Program-made: the position numbers and the translations under genes | Notes under the pieces: model-generated | Seen by the model: the letters and a program-made list of their open reading frames with translations, nothing else | Database searches by the model: none | What the model was told of the DNA's origin: nothing | Part shown: piece after piece, positions 18,460 to 52,129 of the stretch | How positions within the stretch are numbered: the stretch's first letter is position 1 | Layout: every line of letters begins with the position of its first letter | Assembly: GCA_964357175.1 (NCBI GenBank) | Contig: CAYHJU010000001.1 | Location: 32,871 to 96,870, forward strand | Origin: an uncultured Candidatus Saccharibacteria bacterium | GTDB lineage: Bacteria; Patescibacteriota; Minisyncoccia; GWC2-36-17; CAYHJU01 | Length of the DNA stretch: 64,000 nt | Direction of reading: 5' to 3'

Positions 18460-18516
18460 GCGCCCGTAGCTCAGTGGTACCTGCCTGCCGGCAGGCAGGG
18501 AGCAGCTCCCTTTTAT
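18460..18516 (+). pseudogene. truncated 5' copy of tRNA-Lys (positions ~1-37) with a 20-nt palindrome inserted in the D-loop
   Basis: GCGCCCGTAGCTCAGTGGTA[CCTGCCTGCCGGCAGGCAGG]GAGCAGCTCCCTTTTA matches the intact tRNA-Lys at 18779 up to the anticodon loop and then diverges. Even the 2 nt upstream (AT) are shared. Confidence 0.6.
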
Positions 18517-18522
18517 ATAATT

Positions 18523-18768
18523 ATGATTCAATATTACATTTATGCTATAAAGAGTTACAAAGACGGAAGATTATATGTAGGAATAAGTAGAAATCCGGAG
18601 AGTAGATTAATCGAGCACAATTCTGGAATGACAAAATCTACAAAACCTTTCCGACCGTGGAAAATTGTGTTTAAAAGATTTATTGGTGACAGGAAGTCAG
18701 CTAGGATTGAGGAAAAGAAATTAAAGTCAGGATATGGTAAAGAGTTCTTAAAAAAATTGACTAGATAA
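18523..18768 (+). CDS. stand-alone GIY-YIG nuclease domain protein (81 aa)
   Basis: YYIYAIKS...GRLYVGIS...R...EHN motif layout of the GIY-YIG fold. Stop is 10 nt before the intact tRNA-Lys. Confidence 0.75.
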   Translation: MIQYYIYAIKSYKDGRLYVGISRNPESRLIEHNSGMTKSTKPFRPWKIVFKRFIGDRKSARIEEKKLKSGYGKEFLKKLTR

Positions 18769-18778
18769 AAACAAACAT

Positions 18779-18854
18779 GCGCCCGTAGCTCAGTTGGTAG
18801 AGCAGCTCCCTTTTAAGGAGATTGTCGTAGGTTCGATTCCTACCGGGCGCACCA
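18779..18854 (+). tRNA. tRNA-Lys (anticodon UUU), CCA encoded
   Basis: Cloverleaf folded by hand: acceptor GCGCCCG/CGGGCGC, D-arm GCTCAGTTGGTAGAGC, anticodon loop CTTTTAA, T-arm GTAGGTTCGATTCCTAC, ACCA. Confidence 0.85.
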
Positions 18855-19028: not shown

Positions 19029-19085
19029 CATGAGGCGAGCGTTTAGCAGATTAAATATTTTATTCTCTTAAACGCTCGTCTCATG
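19029..19085 (+). promoter_or_regulatory. 17-bp inverted repeat (leader hairpin) at the boundary of the GC-rich segment
   Basis: CATGAGGCGAGCGTTTA ... TAAACGCTCGTCTCATG with one mismatch. A second hairpin CCCGAGCGTCTCGGG+TATTTT at ~19125-19145 looks like a terminator/attenuator. Confidence 0.45.
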
Positions 19086-19165
19086 TGAGGCTGAGTCCCA
19101 CCTGTCGGTAGGCAGGCGCCAGCCCGAGCGTCTCGGGTATTTTCAAACTGTACAGGAGGTGTGCG

Positions 19166-19945
19166 ATGAGTAAAGACGTTGTAAGCCGTAGCCTGTCGGT
19201 GCATAAAGAGCACGAAGTGCTCCTGAAGCTCGAGGCCGCAGGTCTCACCGACGAACTCGCCCAGAAAGTCATCGGCTCCAAGGACAACGATCTTGCCACG
19301 AAGGTGGTGAGGTTGATTCAGAACGGTGGCTTTGAGGCCACCTCCTCCCAGAAGCGTGCCCGTGAGATCATGGGCAATAATTTCTTCGGCGTCGAAGAGA
19401 ATTTTAAACACTTCGGCATATACTACGCTATGGGTCCAGATGCCCGAAAGGCTCTTTCCGAAGTTCCCTTCACCGAAGAAGTTCTACAGGCGCACAAGGA
19501 CACTCACGTCCTCGTCGCAACCTTCCCACTTTCCATTCTCGACATTCGTAGCAAAGCTCCACGTAGCCTCTTCTACCGTCACGAAGACGCCTGGTGCAAC
19601 AGCCAGCGCTTTGCCAAGGACAAGGGAGAAGTCGCCTGGCATCTGGTCAGAAAAACCCCAGTTCAGAACTCCACCAACAGAACCTGGTCGGATCAGCAGT
19701 CTCTCCTTTCCCAGGATGAAGAAACTCCCACGGCCCGTGTCCTGACCTACACCATCATCGGTCACTTCCTGGCAACTGGAGAACGCCTGTTCGAACACAT
19801 CTATGTCCGTACATCGTCGGTGGTTTCGGACGACGACGGGGGCAGCGTTGGCTACTTCGGCTCCGGTGGTCTGCGCGTCGACAGCCGCTGGGATGACGGT
19901 CGCAGCGGCGATCTGGGTGTCTCGTCCTCCCGGAAGTCCAACTGA
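19166..19945 (+). CDS. hypothetical protein encoded in an anomalously GC-rich (~55 % by eye) segment
   Basis: 259-aa ORF preceded by a strong SD (ACAGGAGG, 7 nt before ATG); GC-rich third codon positions; no family recognised. Confidence 0.5.
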   Translation: MSKDVVSRSLSVHKEHEVLLKLEAAGLTDELAQKVIGSKDNDLATKVVRLIQNGGFEATSSQKRAREIMGNNFFGVEENFKHFGIYYAMGPDARKALSEVPFTEEVLQAHKDTHVLVATFPLSILDIRSKAPRSLFYRHEDAWCNSQRFAKDKGEVAWHLVRKTPVQNSTNRTWSDQQSLLSQDEETPTARVLTYTIIGHFLATGERLFEHIYVRTSSVVSDDDGGSVGYFGSGGLRVDSRWDDGRSGDLGVSSSRKSN

Positions 19946-33353: not shown

Positions 33354-33366
33354 TTATATTTATGTT

Positions 33367-33401
33367 TAAAAAACTCCTCTCTGCTGAGAGGAGTTTTTTA
33401 A
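33367..33401. terminator. bidirectional terminator between guaB and the R-M operon
   Basis: AAAAAACTCCTCTCTGCTGAGAGGAGTTTTTT: symmetric hairpin with an A-run 5' and a T-run 3'. Confidence 0.7.
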
Positions 33402-33422
33402 ATAACTTATTTTTTAATGAAT

Positions 33423-34124
33423 TTATTTATTTTTTAATTTTTTTATTTCCATCTCAATCTCTTTTAAAACTTCTTTATTTCCAATCTCTCCATCTAAACT
33501 AAAAATAATAAATACTCCTCCTTTATATTTTTTTTCAAAATCAGCAAAATTCGCCTCCATTCTTTCTGATATGGAATAATTGCCGAAATTTGCTTTTGCT
33601 GTTATTGGTTTGATTTGTATTCCAAAGGCATGTTTACCAACAAGCCCCAAATAATCTATGTCGCCGGCATGATCTAAATCGGTTTCGCTTTCAACAAATT
33701 TTACTTCCGGAAAATGTTTTGCTAGCCCATCATTTACTACGGATTTTTCACGAATAAAGCCATCATAAGTACGATTTACCGTCAGATTGTAGATATAGTC
33801 CATGCAATCTTGCAGGGACAGTTCATTAAATGCTGCTTGCCACTCAGGAATTACAACTTCGGTAATTTTCTCATATAAACGTTCGCCTAATTCTTTTAAA
33901 ATTTTCGGCGTTATTTTTATGGGACTTTTGTTTTCGGTATATGCTTTTTCAAAATACCACTTTTTCCATTCCCCAATTGTTTTGGGCTGGCATTCTCTTA
34001 TCAACGCCATTACTGCGCCAACTTTATTTGGTCGAGATAATTGATAAGTTTGGCAGGCATAATTTAAAACCTTTTCCTTTTTACCGAAATCCATTGAAAA
34101 TTTTCCCGATATTTTATTTGCCAT
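33423..34124 (-). CDS. candidate type II restriction endonuclease (partner of the adjacent methyltransferase)
   Basis: 233-aa ORF overlapping the 3' end of the MTase gene (operon). Possible PD-(D/E)xK-like D...DIDYLG...IQIK segment; no firm family assignment. Confidence 0.4.
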   Translation of the reverse strand: MANKISGKFSMDFGKKEKVLNYACQTYQLSRPNKVGAVMALIRECQPKTIGEWKKWYFEKAYTENKSPIKITPKILKELGERLYEKITEVVIPEWQAAFNELSLQDCMDYIYNLTVNRTYDGFIREKSVVNDGLAKHFPEVKFVESETDLDHAGDIDYLGLVGKHAFGIQIKPITAKANFGNYSISERMEANFADFEKKYKGGVFIIFSLDGEIGNKEVLKEIEMEIKKLKNK

Positions 34125-35409
34125 AACTATACTTTAATAAATTACTAAATTTGTCTTTATATTTATATTCCATCTCGGTGTCAGGTAAGGCTAGTCCATT
34201 TTTTATTAAATGAGCGTTGATAAAAGTTTTATTCTGTAAATAAAGATAAGCTAATAAATTATTTTTATCATCATATTTTTGAGAATCAAATTTCATAAAC
34301 ACCCTTTGCCCCTTTGTTTTTTTGGACAAATAATCTATGGCCTTGCCATTAATTTTGAGATCTTGTTTTATGCCAATTAGTCTAATAATTAAACCATTGC
34401 TCAACCTAATGATTTCAGGGCTAATTATTTCTTTTACTGAGAATAGACTCTCTTTTTTTGATTGGTTATTATCAATTTTTGATCCGAACTGTAATTTTTT
34501 AGGATCTATTTTTTTATCCAATTTATGTGGATCTTTAAATATGTATGGCAATCGACTTAAGTTTTCATTAAAATCGGCATTTTTTCTACTCTTAATGAAT
34601 TCAAAAGAATTATTATTAAAATTAAATGAATCAACGACACCAATTTTAGTTTTGATGATTGGTAAAAACTCAGAATTAATTTCGTACCCGACCGAATTTC
34701 TATCAAGATTTTTTGCAGCTAAGGATGTAGTTCCGCTTCCTAAAAATGGATCCAACACAGTATCGTCAACAAATGAAAACATTTTTATTAGCCTCCGCGG
34801 TAATTCTTCCGGAAACATTGCAATATGGCCATCTTGTCTGGCTCCGCCAAAATTCCAATGACCCTGAAAATATTGATTCCACTCCTCTTTGCTTAATTTA
34901 GATTTTTCCTTTATCTCTTTATCAATTTTGGGCGCATCGCCTTGTTTTTTAAATATTAAAATAAATTCATAATCTAATTTTATAATTCCGTTTCTTGGAT
35001 ATGGAAAGCTGCCCATTATGGTTGCTCCGCCAGTAGTGTTCATAGTGGTGGATTTTTGCCAAATAATTGCTCCCATATAATCAAGTCCGATCGTTTCGCA
35101 AAATTTAATAACCTCTGTTCTTATGGGGATTACCTTGTAACGACCATAATAAACAGAGCGAGCAAATTGATCGCCGATATTTATACAAAGACGACAGCCA
35201 TTTTTTAAAACTCGATTACATTCGCTCCAAACCAAATTCAAATGATTGATGTATTTTTCATAACTATCATTAAAACCAATCTGATTATCTGAACCGTAAT
35301 CCTTTAATTGCCAATATGGTGGCGATGTAATAATTAAATGTACGCTCTCGTTTGGCAATTCTTTCATTGCCCGCGAATCGCCACTAATTATTTTATGACT
35401 TGTTTTCAT
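34114..35409 (-). CDS. beta-class N4-cytosine/N6-adenine DNA methyltransferase with a C-terminal SNase-like (thermonuclease-fold) extension
   Basis: Motif IV SPPY (IITSPPYW) precedes motif I (DPFLGSGTT), i.e. beta-class order. The C-terminal ~130 aa align to staphylococcal nuclease (IRLIGI..., DKNNLLAYLYL, INAHLIKNGLA) but lack the DTPE catalytic motif. Confidence 0.75.
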   Translation of the reverse strand: MKTSHKIISGDSRAMKELPNESVHLIITSPPYWQLKDYGSDNQIGFNDSYEKYINHLNLVWSECNRVLKNGCRLCINIGDQFARSVYYGRYKVIPIRTEVIKFCETIGLDYMGAIIWQKSTTMNTTGGATIMGSFPYPRNGIIKLDYEFILIFKKQGDAPKIDKEIKEKSKLSKEEWNQYFQGHWNFGGARQDGHIAMFPEELPRRLIKMFSFVDDTVLDPFLGSGTTSLAAKNLDRNSVGYEINSEFLPIIKTKIGVVDSFNFNNNSFEFIKSRKNADFNENLSRLPYIFKDPHKLDKKIDPKKLQFGSKIDNNQSKKESLFSVKEIISPEIIRLSNGLIIRLIGIKQDLKINGKAIDYLSKKTKGQRVFMKFDSQKYDDKNNLLAYLYLQNKTFINAHLIKNGLALPDTEMEYKYKDKFSNLLKYSYGK

Positions 35410-35503
35410 AACAACTATAATTTTAGCAAAATCAAGCGATTTTGTGAAATTCTACAAAAAATCAACACCCACTTAAAATGTTTATTTTGTTTTTATATAA
35501 ACC

Positions 35504-35851
35504 TTATCTAAGGTAAGGATTCTTTGCTCGAAGAGAATCTACGTCATCTTTTAGCCCAGACTGTTTAATGTCCAATTTTAACTGGTCTTCTTTTGTCGTG
35601 TGAATCTGTTCGAGCAGGTTGTCGTTTCGCTCTCGATCGCTTTTATTTGACAGTAACACTTGCACCGCTACGGTTACAACAATTAAAATCGTGGCAATAA
35701 CTACAGCTATAATGATGTTAAAATTTCTCAACTCTTGTTTATCGGCCAACTGCTCTATTTTTACTAGACGTTTAGAAAGCTCATCGAGTGTTTCAGATTG
35801 TGCCTTAACAACATCGAATATCTTGGTTTTTGAAGGTGTCTGATCTATCAT
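35504..35851 (-). CDS. hypothetical bitopic membrane protein with coiled coil
   Basis: Central TM helix IIIAVVIATILIVVTVAV flanked by charged coiled-coil segments. Confidence 0.35.
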   Translation of the reverse strand: MIDQTPSKTKIFDVVKAQSETLDELSKRLVKIEQLADKQELRNFNIIIAVVIATILIVVTVAVQVLLSNKSDRERNDNLLEQIHTTKEDQLKLDIKQSGLKDDVDSLRAKNPYLR

Positions 35852-35853
35852 GT

Positions 35854-36087
35854 TTACTTATAAAAACCAACTATTTTTAGGTGATTATCCGGTTGTTTCA
35901 CTACTGCTACATCTAAATATTTATACAAATGAAAATCAACGCCCCCAAAAGCGACGCCTCTTTGAAAAATTACACCTGGTCCAAAAAAAACCCCATTTAT
36001 TTCTACCTGAACTTTAGGAGACAGTGAGCCGTCCAGTAATTCTTGGAAGACATCTAAAAATTTATAGCGCCTTGGTTGTTCGTCCAT
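35854..36087 (-). CDS. hypothetical small protein
   Basis: 77-aa ORF abutting the downstream ORF (2-nt gap), probably co-transcribed. Confidence 0.3.
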   Translation of the reverse strand: MDEQPRRYKFLDVFQELLDGSLSPKVQVEINGVFFGPGVIFQRGVAFGGVDFHLYKYLDVAVVKQPDNHLKIVGFYK

Positions 36088-36162
36088 ATGTTCATTCTAT
36101 CTCATTCAAAACAATATAACAAAAATTATTATTTTATTTCAGTTACAACTTAGTAATTTGTG

Positions 36163-36237
36163 CGGACCGTAGGGGATTTGAACCCCTGGTCTCCTCCGTG
36201 ACAGGGAGGCGTGTTAACCGGGCTACACCAACGGTCC
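36163..36237 (-). tRNA. tRNA-Asp (GUC)
   Basis: Minus strand: acceptor GGACCGT/ACGGTCC, anticodon stem CCTCC/GGAGG, loop CTGTCAC, T-arm AGGGGTTCAAATCCCCT, discriminator G. Confidence 0.8.
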
Positions 36238-36238
36238 A

Positions 36239-36487
36239 TTAATTAATATGTAATTTTTTAAACAAAATCTCCTTTTGCTGACTGTGTGTTTTTAATTCTA
36301 TTTCGCGTTTTAATGCGTCCACTTTCATTAGGTAAGCTTCATAATAGAGTAATGTAAATGGTGCGTATGACTTGGTCGACTTAACCTTTTTAGCATTATG
36401 CTCTTCAAATCTTCTTTTGAGATCTGATGTGGATCCTATATATATCCATTTCTTTATACCACTTTTTATTACATAAACATAATGCAT
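36239..36487 (-). CDS. stand-alone GIY-YIG nuclease domain protein (82 aa)
   Basis: MHYVYVIKS...KWIYIGST...R..EHN motif layout, paralogous to the ORF at 18523. Stop is 2 nt from the tRNA-Asp 5' end. Start set at the internal ATG (the ORF track extends into the pseudo-tRNA). Confidence 0.75.
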   Translation of the reverse strand: MHYVYVIKSGIKKWIYIGSTSDLKRRFEEHNAKKVKSTKSYAPFTLLYYEAYLMKVDALKREIELKTHSQQKEILFKKLHIN

Positions 36488-36499
36488 GTTCAAGTTATT

Positions 36500-36560
36500 A
36501 TTAAGCGAACCCTGGCTATCACCCTGCGGGTGACCACCCGTAGGGTGGCACCAACGGTCC
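36500..36560 (-). pseudogene. truncated 5' copy of tRNA-Asp with two palindromic hairpins inserted in the D-arm
   Basis: Minus strand reads GGACCGTTGGTG[CCACCCTACGGGTGG][TCACCCGCAGGGTGA]TAGCCAGGGTT..., matching tRNA-Asp positions 1-12 and ~13-22 around the inserted hairpins. Confidence 0.5.
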
Positions 36561-36699
36561 ATCTAATACAAAAATTTTATCATAAAAATTAGTAAAAGCA
36601 AATTAGCTTTGCCACGTTTGACGTGGCTTTGCTTTAAATGTTTAAATTCATTATACTGATTTAAGTCAGGAAACAAGCGTGAGTTTATAATACAAAAAC

Positions 36700-47177: not shown

Positions 47178-47233
47178 ATTGTATTAGAATCTTCCGCCCG
47201 AGGCGGACCAGCCTTGGGCTGGAGAATTTAAAT

Positions 47234-49071: not shown

Positions 49072-49384
49072 ATTTTTATTGTACAGTTTTTTGTCTGGCG
49101 GTCAAAGAAAATTTAAATCCTTATTGATTTTATTAAGAAAAGTTATTTTTATTCCCTAAACGATTTTTATCGAACATTTGCGCAGCGAAGACATAATTTA
49201 ATGATAAGTTTGAGCGGTCCGCCCAAGGCGGATAAGTCCGCCCTGGGCGGATTGGTTCAAGTTGTTTGAAGCCAGCCCCTTTGGATTATCCAAAGGGGCT
49301 GGCTGAGTTTTGAATCAAAGCGAAAAAGAATCTTAAATTATCTGAGCAAGCATCTGAGAGATAAAAAGCGTTTAAAGAAATTAG

Positions 49385-50458
49385 TTATATTTTCCAATTC
49401 GCGTCCACTTTAATTTTTTTCCAAGATGTTGCTTTATTTTTTAAATAGTAAGAAGCGACAGCGATCATCTGGGCGTTGTCGGTGCAAAGAGATTTTTTGG
49501 GGCAGTAAAATGATGCGCCTATTTTTTTTGATGCTTTTTTCATTTCGCTCACCAATTTTTCATTGGCCGCTACTCCACCGCCTAAAATGATAGATTTAAC
49601 TTTATATTTTTCTGCGGCACGCATAGTTTTAGTGACCAAGACATCTACAATCGCTTTCTGTATGGAGGCGCACAAATCATCTTTTTGTTTTTCACTAAGT
49701 TTTCCTAAAGATTTCACCAGATATAAAACAGCCGTTTTTAATCCTGAAAAGCTAAAATCCCAGCCCGAGGCTGGTCCGCCTCTGGCGGAGAAATTTACCT
49801 TTGCATTGAGCATTGGGCGCGGCAAATTAAATGCGACAGGATTTCCCACTTCAGCTCTTTTGGCGACGGCTGGCCCTCCTGGATACCCAATCTCCAAAAT
49901 TCTCGCCGCTTTATCAAATGTCTCGCCCGCGGCGTCGTCTCTGGTTTTTCCGATAGTTTTAAAATCCAGATGTTTTTTCATTAAGACAAGCTGGGTGTGA
50001 CCTCCGGAAACTATTAGGGCCAAGGCCGGAAATTTAATTTTATTATTTTCTAAAAAATTTGCGTAAATGTGTGCAATCAAATGGTTTGTTGGCACAATTT
50101 TTTTCTTCCAAGAAAAAGCGAGGGTCTTAGCGGCGCTTACGCCCATTAAAAGAGAGGGAGAAAGGCCTGGCCCAGAGGTGACGGCTATAAAATCAATTTT
50201 TTTAATAAGAGTCTTGATGTCAATTTTTAATTTTTCTTTTGCTTTGGTGAGGGTGCTATAAATGACAGGCGGCAAATTTTCTTCATGCGCCCTGCATGCC
50301 AAATTTGGCACAATTCCTCCAAAGGGGGAATGAATTTCATCCTGTGAAGATGTGGTGTTTGCGAGTATTTCAAAAGACGGGTTTTTGACAGGTCCGCTTA
50401 CTTTTAAAATTGCCGCTCCCGTATCATCGCAACTTGTTTCAATAGATAGAATTAACAT
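49385..50458 (-). CDS. tsaD: tRNA N6-adenosine threonylcarbamoyltransferase TsaD
   Basis: MLILSIETSCDDT N-terminus, HxxH metal site context, ASKH fold; 357 aa. Confidence 0.9.
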   Translation of the reverse strand: MLILSIETSCDDTGAAILKVSGPVKNPSFEILANTTSSQDEIHSPFGGIVPNLACRAHEENLPPVIYSTLTKAKEKLKIDIKTLIKKIDFIAVTSGPGLSPSLLMGVSAAKTLAFSWKKKIVPTNHLIAHIYANFLENNKIKFPALALIVSGGHTQLVLMKKHLDFKTIGKTRDDAAGETFDKAARILEIGYPGGPAVAKRAEVGNPVAFNLPRPMLNAKVNFSARGGPASGWDFSFSGLKTAVLYLVKSLGKLSEKQKDDLCASIQKAIVDVLVTKTMRAAEKYKVKSIILGGGVAANEKLVSEMKKASKKIGASFYCPKKSLCTDNAQMIAVASYYLKNKATSWKKIKVDANWKI

Positions 50459-51707: not shown

Positions 51708-51772
51708 AAGCCTTGGCGAAGTGTGGCTTGCCTCGACGTAGCTTTAGCGAAGTCGGGGCCTCGTCGTCTAGC
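51708..51772 (+). repeat. imperfect tandem duplication (~30 nt x2) of the tRNA-Glu 5' end and its upstream 15 nt
   Basis: Unit 1 GCCTTGGCGAAGTGTGGCTTGCCTCGACGTA (51710-40) vs unit 2 GCTTTAGCGAAGTCGGGGCCTCGTCGTCTA (51741-70). Unit 2 runs into the tRNA. Confidence 0.4.
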
Positions 51773-51830
51773 CCGGTCAGGACGCCAGGTTTTCATCCTG
51801 GTAACACGGGTTCGAATCCCGTCGAGGCTA
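51757..51830 (+). tRNA. tRNA-Glu (UUC)
   Basis: Aligns to bacterial tRNA-Glu: acceptor GGCCTCG/CGAGGCT (G1.U72), D-arm GTCTAGCCCGGTCAGGAC, anticodon loop TTTTCAT, T-arm ACGGGTTCGAATCCCGT. Confidence 0.8.
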
Positions 51831-51845
51831 CTTAATAAAATTAAA

Positions 51846-51878
51846 TCCTCCCACAAGGAGGCTTTTAATTTTATTAAT
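51846..51878 (+). terminator. terminator after tRNA-Glu
   Basis: CCTCCcacaaGGAGG hairpin followed by CTTTTAATTTTATT. Confidence 0.5.
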
Positions 51879-52129
51879 TTTCGGCGGGATTCGAACAGTA
51901 AAGGGAAAGGGGTCGGGAAAACGGGAGTTTTCCCGTTGCGGAAATATTAAAACCGCTGGGTTTTAAAATCGCGAAGCGATTGTTCGATTTTCCGTCGAGA
52001 CTACTGATTATTTTAATAAAAACAGCCCATTTGCATTGCAATATTCTTCTGCGGTTTTATTTTGCTTTACATATTCTGCTGAACCGTACTAAACTAAAAG
52101 TAGGTTAAAAACAAATCCAATATTAAAAC

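Follow-up and report, generated by a model that had tools for sequence, protein, structure and literature searches.

Upstream of a tRNA-Asp gene, the 64-kb window (the whole stretch of DNA analyzed here) carries a partial copy of the 5' end of that tRNA, a pair of hairpins and a minimal GIY-YIG nuclease gene; a diverged version of the same layout precedes a tRNA-Lys gene. We judge it probable, without regarding the matter as settled, that the tRNA-Asp locus is a small selfish cassette living in tRNA genes and composed of a minimal GIY-YIG nuclease, its cognate hairpin or hairpins, and tRNA homology arms. The layout recurs at numerous tRNA genes across many bacteria and has the look of selfish DNA of an undescribed kind; a literature search for a bacterial architecture of GIY-YIG genes and tRNA fragments found no description.

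Anatomy of the two tRNA loci

The initial annotation had described a tRNA-Asp 5' fragment with two hairpins, an 82-aa GIY-YIG ORF and an intact tRNA-Asp, and every part was found where it had been placed (Table 1). The gap between the stop codon and the tRNA required correction, from 2 nt to 1 nt (position 36238). The ORF length given there was also correct, as homologues begin at MHYVYV; the gene callers used for public assemblies give a 106-107-aa ORF that starts inside the tRNA fragment. The 12-mer GGACCGTTGGTG occurs exactly twice in 64 kb against an expectation of 0.08, which excludes a chance origin of the copy. Base 3 of the fragment is the same as base 3 of the adjoining tRNA, both in the window (A) and in the related locus L024 (G). 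The origin of the second part of the fragment is less certain than that of the first, and it could alternatively include bases derived from the T-arm (GACCAGGGGTTC).

Table 1. Coordinates of the tRNA-associated GIY-YIG loci and of the dispersed paired hairpins in the window.
Feature	Position	Strand	Remarks
Putative native tRNA-Asp promoter and leader, TTTGCTTTTACTAATTTTTATGATAAAATTTTTGTATTAGAT	36561..36602	-	extended -10-like TGATAAAAT; stands before the fragment
tRNA-Asp 5' fragment part 1, GGACCGTTGGTG	36549..36560	-	exact copy of tRNA-Asp bases 1-12
Hairpin 1, CCACCCTACGGGTGG	36548-36534	-	15 nt, CCACCC-TAC-GGGTGG
Hairpin 2, TCACCCGCAGGGTGA	36533-36519	-	15 nt, TCACCC-GCA-GGGTGA
Paired GC hairpins	36519..36548	-	6-bp stems; loop types TNC then GNA
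tRNA-Asp 5' fragment part 2, TAGCCAGGGTT	36508..36518	-	~bases 13-22, one mismatch and one extra base
Spacer, fragment part 2 to ATG		-	20 nt
AspG, 82-aa single-domain GIY-YIG ORF	36239..36487	-	including stop; ATG at 36487, stop 36241-36239
Single base between AspG stop and tRNA-Asp	36238	-	
Intact tRNA-Asp(GTC)	36162..36237	-	ARAGORN; Rfam RF00005, 66.2 bits
tRNA-Lys 5' fragment, bases 1-21 and 22-37	18460..18515	+	split by CCTGCCTGCCGGCAGGCAGG palindrome
CCTGCCTGCCGGCAGGCAGG palindrome	18480-18499	+	20 nt
LysG, 81-aa GIY-YIG ORF	18523..18768	+	34% identical to AspG
Intact tRNA-Lys(TTT)	18779..18854	+	10 nt past LysG stop
Dispersed paired hairpin, TCCGCC-CGA-GGCGGA + CCAGCC-TTG-GGCTGG	47193..47222	.	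between rplT and rpmI
Dispersed paired hairpin, two TCCGCC hairpins, 4-nt spacer	49218..49251	.	between smpB and tsaD
Dispersed paired hairpin in tsaD	49760..49789	.	in-frame insertion, adds SARGGPASGW

The element upstream of the fragment is homologous to the DNA directly 5' of the plain tRNA-Asp genes of two relatives without the cassette (L030 and L033), and it is conserved in L024. We infer that it is the native promoter of the tRNA, an inference resting only on this conservation with relatives. A simple sigma-70 promoter scan made no call at the element, because its -35 is weak. A 2.8-kb restriction-modification island adjoins the 3' end of tRNA-Asp in the window. L024 was rejected as a case of a different genomic context; it is syntenic with the window and merely lacks this island. 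A Sua5 gene is present in five independent assemblies of the tRNA-Asp locus, and in four of these the 107-aa GIY-YIG call adjoins it, the fifth assembly stopping short of that position. As independent assemblies agree, the locus is not an assembly artefact.

AspG and LysG are the only GIY-YIG ORFs in the window, matching PF01541 with 58.3 and 53.2 bits, respectively (cut-off 22.6). Absence of similarity between them would have refuted the tRNA-associated family that had been proposed, and their alignment (34% identity, E = 2e-9) disposes of this objection. At the tRNA-Lys locus the tRNA leader is partly duplicated 5' of the fragment, and the combination of tRNA-Lys fragment, hairpin and ORF is also found in L071 (93% amino acid identity) and L073 (70%). 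An identity as a group I intron of a tRNA, carrying a homing endonuclease gene, was considered and rejected: no intron family was among the Rfam gathering-threshold matches in the window, and nothing interrupts the tRNA.

Recurrence and presence or absence among relatives

From two loci with different tRNAs, one layout and diverged GIY-YIG paralogues, a tRNA-associated family had been proposed, and the pattern recurs well beyond the window. In genome and metagenome collections, 57 of 58 homologous loci were tRNA-linked, with the ORF abutting a same-strand tRNA and its stop codon mostly ≤25 nt from that tRNA or overlapping it; absence of the pattern elsewhere, which would have refuted the family, can thus be set aside. 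These loci were found with a 13-sequence subset, because the 29-sequence alignment of the family was too diverse. An upstream tRNA fragment, called when its score exceeded the 99th percentile of shuffled controls, was present in 27 of the 43 loci where the ORF precedes the tRNA. About a third of loci have no recognizable fragment, which counts against the cassette reading. A mirror configuration (tRNA, ORF, hairpins, 3' fragment) also exists. The layout seen in the window is also that of the Lys-type paralogue family, at tRNA-Lys, at tRNA-Asn and, in a genome of Flagellimonas (Bacteroidota), at tRNA-Leu. In the window, L013, L005/L049 and L076/77, duplication of the tRNA start extends to the leader. 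Protein clades match both tRNA identity and configuration; old vertical inheritance could alternatively cause proteins to cluster by tRNA type. Searches of phage and plasmid collections with both proteins gave no match, a result that counts against a mobile cassette.

The recurrence of an identical layout in dozens of unrelated genomes bears on whether the tRNA-Asp locus is the remnant of an integrase-type island bounded by att repeats, or whether an ORF was caught up in a chance tandem duplication. Integration at tRNA genes is classical, and the restriction-modification island at the tRNA-Asp 3' end would suit the first of these. There is, however, no integrase, and only the 82-aa ORF lies between the repeats. 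What is repeated is the 5' portion of the tRNA, the 3' end being single-copy in the window, and the duplicated unit spans only ~320 bp. With the layout recurring and neither an integrase nor a 3' repeat present, we consider this explanation effectively refuted.

Comparison with close relatives showed that the cassette is present or absent as a whole. L030 and L033 have the IMPDH gene, tRNA-Asp, the homologous promoter region and Sua5 (86% and 81% identical to that of the window, respectively), and their syntenic tRNA-Asp has no ORF, no fragment and no hairpins. Relative to L024, the ORF block is 93-95% identical at the nucleotide level, compared with 83% for the adjoining IMPDH gene. Two features of this comparison count against a cassette. 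The entire tRNA-Asp unit has one orientation in the window and L024 and the opposite one in L030 and L033, an inversion that simple integration does not predict. In addition, the intact tRNA-Asp of the window is nearly identical to that of the cassette-free relatives, differing at base pair 3:70 and base 47; no immunity change is consistent across the cassette-bearing loci, and how the tRNA would escape cleavage remains unexplained.

Several fragments come from another tRNA allele than the neighboring intact gene. In L009, the tRNA-Tyr fragment has a compensatory D-stem change. The 3' fragments of L051, L054 and L056 differ from the adjoining tRNA in both T-stem and acceptor stem, and in L045 the ORF and an intact tRNA-Glu lie between pieces of a different tRNA-Glu allele. 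The acceptor stem of the L071 fragment is GCGCCCG and that of its intact tRNA-Lys GCCTCGA, beside an ORF that is 93% identical to the one in the window.

The GIY-YIG protein and comparable systems

AspG is a prokaryotic Slx1/UPF0213-like minimal GIY-YIG protein by its nearest relatives. Its 82 aa form one domain, with no second or auxiliary domain and no conserved C-terminal Asn. In a 29-sequence alignment, Y16, G18, R26, H30 and E62 are invariant and Y5 nearly so, and no invariant Asn follows E62. The AlphaFold model (pLDDT 95.2) best matched UPF0213 BH0048 (1zg2) and Slx1 nuclease domains (TMq 0.62-0.70) in Foldseek, and it also matched the catalytic domains of I-TevI and UvrC. A profile search of the PDB gave 1zg2 (E = 6e-13) and 1ywl (E = 2e-10), followed by SLX1. 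The sole NCBIfam match, to a group I intron endonuclease model, was sub-threshold and covered residues 3-40. An exact-sequence look-up of the 82-aa protein among public proteins found no match, the public gene calls being of the 106-107-aa form.

Relative to L024, AspG has nine synonymous and three non-synonymous codon changes, and is under purifying selection. Purifying selection and the intact catalytic residues would also be expected of a domesticated host gene, an Slx1/UPF0213- or Ssn-like nuclease serving the cell (e.g., by repairing DNA, restricting incoming ssDNA or controlling recombination), constitutively expressed from tRNA promoters and accompanied by fragments that are by-products of local duplication. 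The family of minimal GIY-YIG proteins is very large (28,300 clusters at 50% identity, E ≤ 1e-3), a repair role was earlier predicted for prokaryotic Slx1-like proteins, and Ssn modulates transformation in Neisseria, all of which would suit such a role. This explanation nevertheless has to face presence or absence at one locus among close relatives, fragments of foreign alleles and replaced tRNAs, tandem arrays and pseudogenised copies (e.g., L045, with an internal stop, and L061), and the occurrence within 64 kb of two paralogues, both accompanied by a separate broken copy of a tRNA. We therefore regard a host function as improbable.

Several known systems resemble the proposed cassette in part, and two of them, SegB and Ssn, count in its favor as precedents. 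The phage T4 endonuclease SegB is a protein of ~220 aa with a separate DNA-binding region; AspG has no such Seg-like domain, Seg-like proteins totaling ~200-250 aa. SegB is a free-standing homing endonuclease, described as a homologue of other GIY-YIG homing endonucleases, encoded in a phage tRNA gene cluster; it recognizes the tRNA T-loop motif GGTTCRANTCC and drives the inheritance of its own gene and neighboring tRNA genes, and close relatives lack it (PMC2330249). The two systems are thus alike in placing a GIY-YIG gene among tRNA genes and in its absence from close relatives, here L030 and L033. They differ in that phage SegB has neither a partial tRNA duplicate nor associated hairpins, and in that AspG is chromosomal, 82 aa long, single-domain and of the Slx1/UPF0213-like lineage.

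The Ssn proteins (cd10448) are single-domain, site-specific GIY-YIG nucleases of ssDNA whose genes are flanked by the NTS/SRM hairpin repeats that they bind (Chenal et al. 2025, PMC11893778). We infer, without enzymatic data, that the cassette nuclease is functionally nearest to these hairpin-directed enzymes. Like AspG, they are small single-domain proteins (<150 aa), with comparable catalytic spacing (Y6/Y17/E64 in SsnA, Y5/Y16/E62 in AspG). Both systems have GC-rich hairpin repeats (20-50 nt) beside the gene, of a type that co-varies with the nuclease. Ssn repeats are also scattered through the genome, and three further paired hairpins, with stems unlike those beside either ORF, lie in the 64-kb window. 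The window hairpins differ in standing on one side of the gene only, and the SRM consensus HGTCWY..RNCYNB had no match in the window (shuffled mean 0.1), a point against the cassette; the Ssn paper, moreover, is silent on tRNA genes and tRNA fragments (PMC11893778). The prokaryotic Slx1-like/UPF0213 minimal GIY-YIG proteins, including BH0048 (1zg2) and EF2693 (1ywl), are the best sequence and fold matches of AspG and likewise lack an auxiliary domain or a conserved C-terminal Asn; in contrast, they have been treated as vertically inherited repair proteins, with no link to tRNA genes or hairpins described (Dunin-Horkawicz et al. 2006, PMC1564403).

Other parallels concern the architecture. Integrative elements of tRNA genes carry part of the tRNA, restore the gene and are flanked by direct repeats, and in integron cassettes (attC) a folded palindrome is likewise a possible recombination site; unlike either, the cassette has no tyrosine or serine recombinase and measures only ~0.35-0.45 kb. 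It also differs from integrative elements in that most cassette loci, tRNA-Asp included, have a 5' arm; the mirror lineage has a 3' arm. In the mitochondrial atp6 gene of the fungus Allomyces, a mobile endonuclease ORF carries a replacement piece of its target gene, and the displaced native part persists as a pseudo-fragment. This parallel combines an endonuclease ORF, a partial target copy and a pseudo-fragment as here, differing in its organellar setting, protein-coding targets and larger endonucleases. In fungal mitochondria, short GC-rich double hairpins or GC clusters are scattered through the genome, some of them in coding regions. Such mitochondrial double-hairpin elements (DHEs) are cited in PMC2800124, among other papers.

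Proposed route of spread and the associated hairpins

We suggest that the mobile unit would consist of the hairpin, a short tRNA arm, the ORF, and the leader with a long tRNA arm. It would enter a cognate tRNA gene through recombination across the tRNA homology, an event probably stimulated by a nuclease cut in or near the tRNA or hairpin; the donor might be either a linear fragment or a small circular molecule. An intact tRNA would be restored downstream by crossover within the long arm, and the hairpin would remain upstream with the displaced native 5' fragment. Use of the 3' arm would instead yield the mirror lineage, with tRNA, ORF, hairpins and 3' fragment in that order. The native tRNA promoter would drive a transcript of fragment, ORF and tRNA, from which RNase P would free the tRNA. 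The activity of the nuclease, the target that it cuts, the recombination route and integration chemistry, the co-transcription and the use of the hairpin as a recognition site are inferences. The order at L009, where tRNA bases [1-34], hairpins, bases [35-41], the ORF and the intact tRNA are followed by [29-34], the same hairpins and [35-85], is the product expected of integration at a hairpin plus tRNA-arm site. Two considerations count against the cassette. AspG lacks a separate DNA-binding domain, and there are no enzymatic data; and because GIY-YIG enzymes are hydrolytic, rejoining must fall to host recombination.

A fuller version of this proposal, a real possibility rather than our expectation, would recognize a class of overlooked minimal mobile elements of ~0.35-0.45 kb, each with an 80-aa GIY-YIG nuclease, a strand-symmetric palindrome as recognition or attachment site, and tRNA arms. 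Hairpin-directed cleavage and host recombination would regenerate or replace the tRNA, the elements would have spread from Patescibacteria to Bacteroidota, and their hairpins would seed other sites, including in-frame sites in essential genes. If true, this would assign a concrete genomic behavior to a very large "hypothetical" family of minimal GIY-YIG proteins, connect tRNA-gene targeting with Ssn, a recently described group of hairpin-directed nucleases, and account for two recurrent features of Patescibacteria annotations, the pseudo-tRNA fragments and the ORF calls that are too long (106-107 aa). It would further point to a route of horizontal tRNA-gene replacement in reduced genomes whose tRNAs are single-copy. 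The pairs of nuclease and hairpin are candidates for programmable ssDNA tools, and Flagellimonas offers a cultivable system for testing the mechanism.

The hairpins are closely associated with the ORFs. Among related loci, 40 paired hairpins fell in the 27.6 kb adjoining ORFs and one in 143.6 kb of farther flank, a ~200-fold enrichment. They lie ≤200 nt upstream in 22 loci by strict matching (~30 with one mismatch allowed), always at a distance of 3-17 nt from where the fragment ends on the ORF side. In L009, L045 and L061 they stand on both sides of the ORF, and in the window on the upstream side only. The 31 distinct paired copies share one design in which stems vary and loops are conserved; because copies were chosen for being hairpins, stem covariation is partly circular and shows only varying stems with constant loops and geometry. 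Hairpin type follows nuclease clade, the paired 15-mers accompanying Asp-type proteins and the CCTGCCTGCCGGCAGGCAGG palindrome Lys-type proteins, and tracks the protein family even across phyla. The 30-mer pair of the window also occurs upstream of the ORF at tRNA-Tyr in L009.

The position of the hairpins raised the question of an RNA-level function, in which the tRNA-like leader would fold with the hairpins into a structured 5' UTR governing either how the ORF is translated (e.g., by hiding a GGGTGA/GGAGG-like ribosome-binding site) or how the tRNA precursor is processed. The hairpin ends 9-10 nt from the ATG in six loci representing three clades, its 3' arm is Shine-Dalgarno-like, and phage homing endonuclease genes have ribosome-binding sites hidden in hairpins. 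The spacing ranges from 9 to 38 nt, however, and no Shine-Dalgarno lies near the ATG of the window copy. The mirror type has the same hairpins downstream of the ORF, and they also occur at unrelated places, including inside tsaD. As the hairpin pair is identical on both strands, it fits DNA rather than RNA recognition, and we consider an RNA-level function very unlikely.

The initial annotation had held that the hairpins are not simply one REP copy. This is true, although they nevertheless belong to a dispersed repeat family with conserved structure. A REP/RAYT or IS200/IS605 identity was rejected, as the hairpin-associated protein is a GIY-YIG and not an HUH (Y1) transposase. Their dispersal suits a view in which the hairpins alone are mobile, as 30-nt palindromic mini-elements that insert into tsaD and into structured DNA such as tRNA genes. 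The GIY-YIG protein would then be a resident, largely vertical, trans-acting nuclease (cf. RAYT/REP and Ssn/NTS), and the tRNA fragments dead duplicates hit by hairpins. Some paired hairpins are remote from every GIY-YIG gene, including the in-frame copy of tsaD; several have gathered in the pseudo-tRNAs of L006, L045 and L071; the nuclease family is matched by hairpin type, and Ssn provides a precedent. Mobility of the hairpins alone does not account for an ORF wedged against the tRNA in nearly every locus, for the joint absence of ORF, fragment and hairpins in syntenic relatives, or for the 93%-identical ORF beside tRNA-Lys genes with different acceptor stems, and we find it unlikely compared with the selfish cassette.

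The hairpin design is not private to the tRNA-Asp locus, as three more paired hairpins lie elsewhere in the 64-kb window (Table 1). Their stems (TCCGCC, CCAGCC) differ from those beside either ORF, which speaks against the cassette. At the site of the copy in tsaD, alignment to the solved TsaD (6nak) gives an 11-residue gap in the reference exactly there.

Anatomy of the tRNA-Asp and tRNA-Lys loci

Every part of the minus-strand layout that the initial annotation had listed at tRNA-Asp was found in its place, although the distance from the stop codon to the intact tRNA, given there as 2 nt, measured 1 nt. The tRNA-Asp 12-mer occurs in exactly two copies in the window, against 0.08 expected. 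The tRNA-Lys locus is built alike: the palindrome CCTGCCTGCCGGCAGGCAGG separates tRNA-Lys bases 1-21 from bases 22-37, and then come an 81-aa ORF (LysG) and tRNA-Lys. LysG and AspG, the 82-aa ORF at tRNA-Asp, are the sole GIY-YIG ORFs in the 64 kb window, and the paralogy proposed for them holds: both are true GIY-YIG domains, 34% identical.

Coordinates of the tRNA-Asp cassette, LysG and the dispersed paired hairpins of the window
Feature	Position	Strand	Remark
tRNA-Asp bases 1-12, GGACCGTTGGTG	36560-36549	minus	
First hairpin, CCACCCTACGGGTGG	36548-36534	minus	
Second hairpin, TCACCCGCAGGGTGA	36533-36519	minus	
TAGCCAGGGTT, resembling tRNA-Asp bases 13-22	36518-36508	minus	one mismatch, one extra base
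Spacer	36507-36488	minus	20 nt
82-aa ORF (AspG)	36487-36239	minus	including stop
Single base between ORF stop and tRNA-Asp	36238	minus	
Intact tRNA-Asp(GTC)	36237-36162	minus	ARAGORN and Rfam
81-aa ORF (LysG)	18523-18768	plus	
Paired hairpin, rplT/rpmI intergenic	47193-47222		far from any GIY-YIG gene
Paired hairpin, smpB/tsaD intergenic	49218-49251		far from any GIY-YIG gene
30-nt paired GC hairpin, in frame in essential tsaD (49385-50458, minus)	49760-49789		far from any GIY-YIG gene

Public gene calls make AspG 106-107 aa long and place its start codon within the tRNA fragment; alignment of homologous sequences supports a predicted length of 82 aa. In that alignment Y16, G18, R26, H30 and E62 are invariant and Y5 nearly so. 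The AlphaFold model of AspG is confident (pLDDT 95). Among solved structures, the Slx1 nuclease domain and two UPF0213 proteins, BH0048 and EF2693, come closest by both sequence and fold, with I-TevI and UvrC as remoter matches; AspG belongs to the 'minimal, stand-alone, no C-terminal Asn' prokaryotic Slx1-like group of Dunin-Horkawicz et al. The family is a very large one, comprising 28,300 clusters at 50% identity (E <= 1e-3). Codon differences between AspG and its 96%-identical copy in L024, a close cassette-bearing relative, are synonymous in 9 cases and non-synonymous in 3, which indicates purifying selection on the gene.

Automatic annotation often adds ~25 codons to such ORFs (P0001, L025-L029 and database matches of 105-112 aa), giving 106-112 aa rather than ~82. 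ORFs over-extended in this way run through the hairpins and the tRNA fragment, so that the fragment is hidden in a 'coding' region.

Recurrence beside tRNA genes and pairing with hairpins

The suggestion that one layout at different tRNAs marks an element family is supported by its recurrence far outside the window. Of the loci surveyed, 23 came from species-representative genomes and 35 from metagenomes. At 40 of them the ORF stop overlaps a same-strand tRNA or lies no more than 25 nt ahead of its start; at 8 the tRNA is farther downstream, with extra fragments, tandem copies or masked runs in between; at 3 the contig ends inside or just ahead of the expected tRNA; and at 6 the tRNA is directly upstream of the ORF instead. 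Only L062 had no tRNA in view. Ser(GGA) was the commonest partner, followed by Asp, Glu, Ser(TGA), Ser(CGA), Tyr, Arg and Trp, and tandem arrays occur at L061 and L022. A neighbour-joining protein tree grouped the nucleases by abutting tRNA and configuration, with one Ser-to-Tyr switch.

Among 'ORF then tRNA' loci whose upstream sequence could be used, 27/43 carry an upstream copy of the 5' part of the tRNA (score above the 99th percentile of shuffled controls), and several copies are exact over 25-58 nt. A recognisable fragment is missing in about a third of the 'ORF then tRNA' loci, which counts against the cassette model. The Lys-type nucleases, named like the Asp-type after the corresponding locus of the window, show the same design at tRNA-Lys (L071, L073), tRNA-Asn (L074) and tRNA-Leu(TAA), the last in Flagellimonas (Bacteroidota; L076, L077 1330-1880), where a 28-nt leader is duplicated and the 5' tRNA fragment is split by a hairpin. 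The architecture therefore extends beyond Patescibacteria, and as this genus is cultivable, an experimental host is available.

The Asp-type insert consists of two adjacent 15-mers with 6-bp stems and loops TNC then GNA, an order that makes the 30-mer read identically on either strand. Stems differ (CACCC, CAGCC, CCCCC, CGCCC, CCGCC); geometry and loops are constant. The stem-pairing statistic is partly circular, because copies were picked as hairpins. The 27.6 kb next to the ORFs hold 40 paired hairpins and the 143.6 kb of flank farther out only 1, an enrichment of ~200-fold. Their sites in the fragment are the D-arm, anticodon loop or T-loop, always 3-17 nt from the ORF-side end. The Lys-type palindrome, CCTGCC(TGCC)GGYAGGCAGG, is found regardless of tRNA or phylum; hairpin type thus tracks nuclease clade.

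The stems of the dispersed hairpins of the window are unlike those at either ORF (TCCGCC and CCAGCC in the intergenic two), a mismatch that weighs against the cassette model; for the intergenic pair it may point to a third nuclease encoded in another part of the genome. The hairpin in tsaD encodes ~10 extra residues (SARGGPASGW) just ahead of the FSFSGLK motif, and solved TsaD structures have a gap exactly at this position.

Pseudo-tRNA 'graveyards' were seen at homologous loci in other genomes or metagenomes: a pseudo-tRNA-Ser of almost full length into which four hairpins are inserted (L006 2262-2400), a set of tRNA-Glu fragments that all carry a hairpin pair, together with an ORF interrupted by an internal stop (L045 66-560), and a pseudo-tRNA-Lys with two hairpins downstream of the intact tRNA-Lys (L071 405-520).

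Cassette-free relatives, divergent fragments and a proposed recombination model

The cassette-free relatives L030 and L033, whose Sua5 is 86% and 81% identical to that of the window, share its neighbourhood of TIM, two tRNA-Met, IMPDH, tRNA-Asp and Sua5, and their IMPDH-Sua5 interval (~180 nt) holds no ORF, tRNA fragment or hairpins. The sequence ahead of the fragment in the window and L024 is homologous to the tRNA-Asp promoter and leader of these two relatives; CATATTAATTAAT, the last bases ahead of the window's intact tRNA-Asp, also resembles their leader. Leader-like sequence ahead of both fragment and intact gene implies that the duplicated segment was the leader plus tRNA bases 1 to ~22.

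Mobility of the cassette is suggested by these empty sites, by the tandem arrays and the protein tree, by uneven divergence, and by fragments that stem from foreign tRNA alleles. Identity to L024 is 93-95% across the cassette block and 83% in the adjacent IMPDH gene. L071 shares its fragment, hairpin and ORF with the window (ORF 93% identical in aa), but its intact tRNA-Lys has a different acceptor stem. The tRNA-Tyr fragment of L009 shows a compensatory D-stem change relative to the resident gene; at L051, L054 and L056 the 3' fragments have T-stems and acceptor stems unlike the adjacent tRNA; and at L045, L050 and L065 the ORF and an intact tRNA-Glu lie between pieces of a single, different tRNA-Glu allele.

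Six loci have a mirror form, the reverse of the window's order: the ATG of the ORF lies only a few bases after the intact tRNA, and the ORF is followed by '..GTTC', the paired hairpins and 'GAATC..acceptor 3' strand'. L009 reads [leader + 1-34][hairpins][35-41], ORF, [leader + intact tRNA-Tyr + trailer], [29-34][same hairpins][35-85 + trailer]. We propose that a unit of hairpin, short tRNA arm, ORF and long tRNA arm may recombine with a tRNA gene. Crossover in the long arm would restore the tRNA, and the hairpin would remain with the displaced piece. The donor could be a small circle or a linear fragment, the latter acting through natural transformation or through gene conversion once a cut has been made; the sequence fits either. 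Judged by their arrangement alone, L009 and the mirror loci would be the expected products, and such recombination would explain the duplicated leaders, the hairpin's constant place near the fragment's inner end, and the mirror type. It does not account for one difference from L030 (4825-4960) and L033: in the window and L024 the entire tRNA-Asp unit (36162-36602), from promoter through tRNA to terminator side, is inverted with respect to IMPDH and Sua5. A selfish nuclease and hairpin cassette resident in tRNA genes is the likeliest explanation, which we favour with moderate confidence; enzymatic data are lacking and nuclease activity is inferred.

Known systems and neighbouring features

T4 SegB, a GIY-YIG homing endonuclease in a tRNA cluster, recognises a T-loop motif and carries neighbouring tRNA genes along (PMC2330249). 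It leaves no tRNA duplicate, whereas the cassette does. SegB is also larger than AspG and has several domains. Ssn nucleases are single-domain GIY-YIG proteins whose genes are flanked by the GC-rich hairpin repeats that they bind, and they cut ssDNA close by (PMC11893778); by analogy, they offer the best functional counterpart to the nuclease-hairpin pairing. The published Ssn repeat consensus has no match in the window, and the Ssn paper does not mention tRNA. In fungal mitochondria, endonuclease ORFs bring a replacement piece of atp6, and double-hairpin elements also occur in mitochondria; together they may be regarded as a close conceptual parallel. The literature searched contained no description of a tRNA-fragment, hairpin and GIY-YIG architecture in bacteria, and a recent survey of Patescibacteria tRNA introns makes no mention of it. 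We regard the cassette as a variant on known kinds rather than a proven new class.

Three other features of the window lie near tRNA genes. The tRNA-Glu (51757-51831) is flanked by a degenerate 5'-like piece, GCCTCGACGTAGC (51730-51742), and a 3'-like piece, GTTCGATTTTCCGTCGAGACTAC (51967-52004), the latter with an AATCGC-GAA-GCGATT hairpin just ahead; these flanks (51730-52004) contain no ORF, and the pieces may be what remains of a cassette since lost. A ~2.8 kb block (33354-36161) that separates IMPDH from the 3' end of tRNA-Asp, and that L024, L030 and L033 lack, is probably a restriction-modification island. Besides a 233-aa ORF and two small ORFs, it encodes a protein in which an N4/N6 DNA methylase is joined to an SNase-like domain. 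Downstream of tRNA-Lys, a GC-rich stretch (19040-19945) with a 259-aa ORF of atypical composition may be foreign DNA; hairpin-like sequences downstream of this tRNA are CCCACCTGTCGGTAGGCAGG at 19097-19116 and CCCGAGCGTCTCGGG at 19123-19137.
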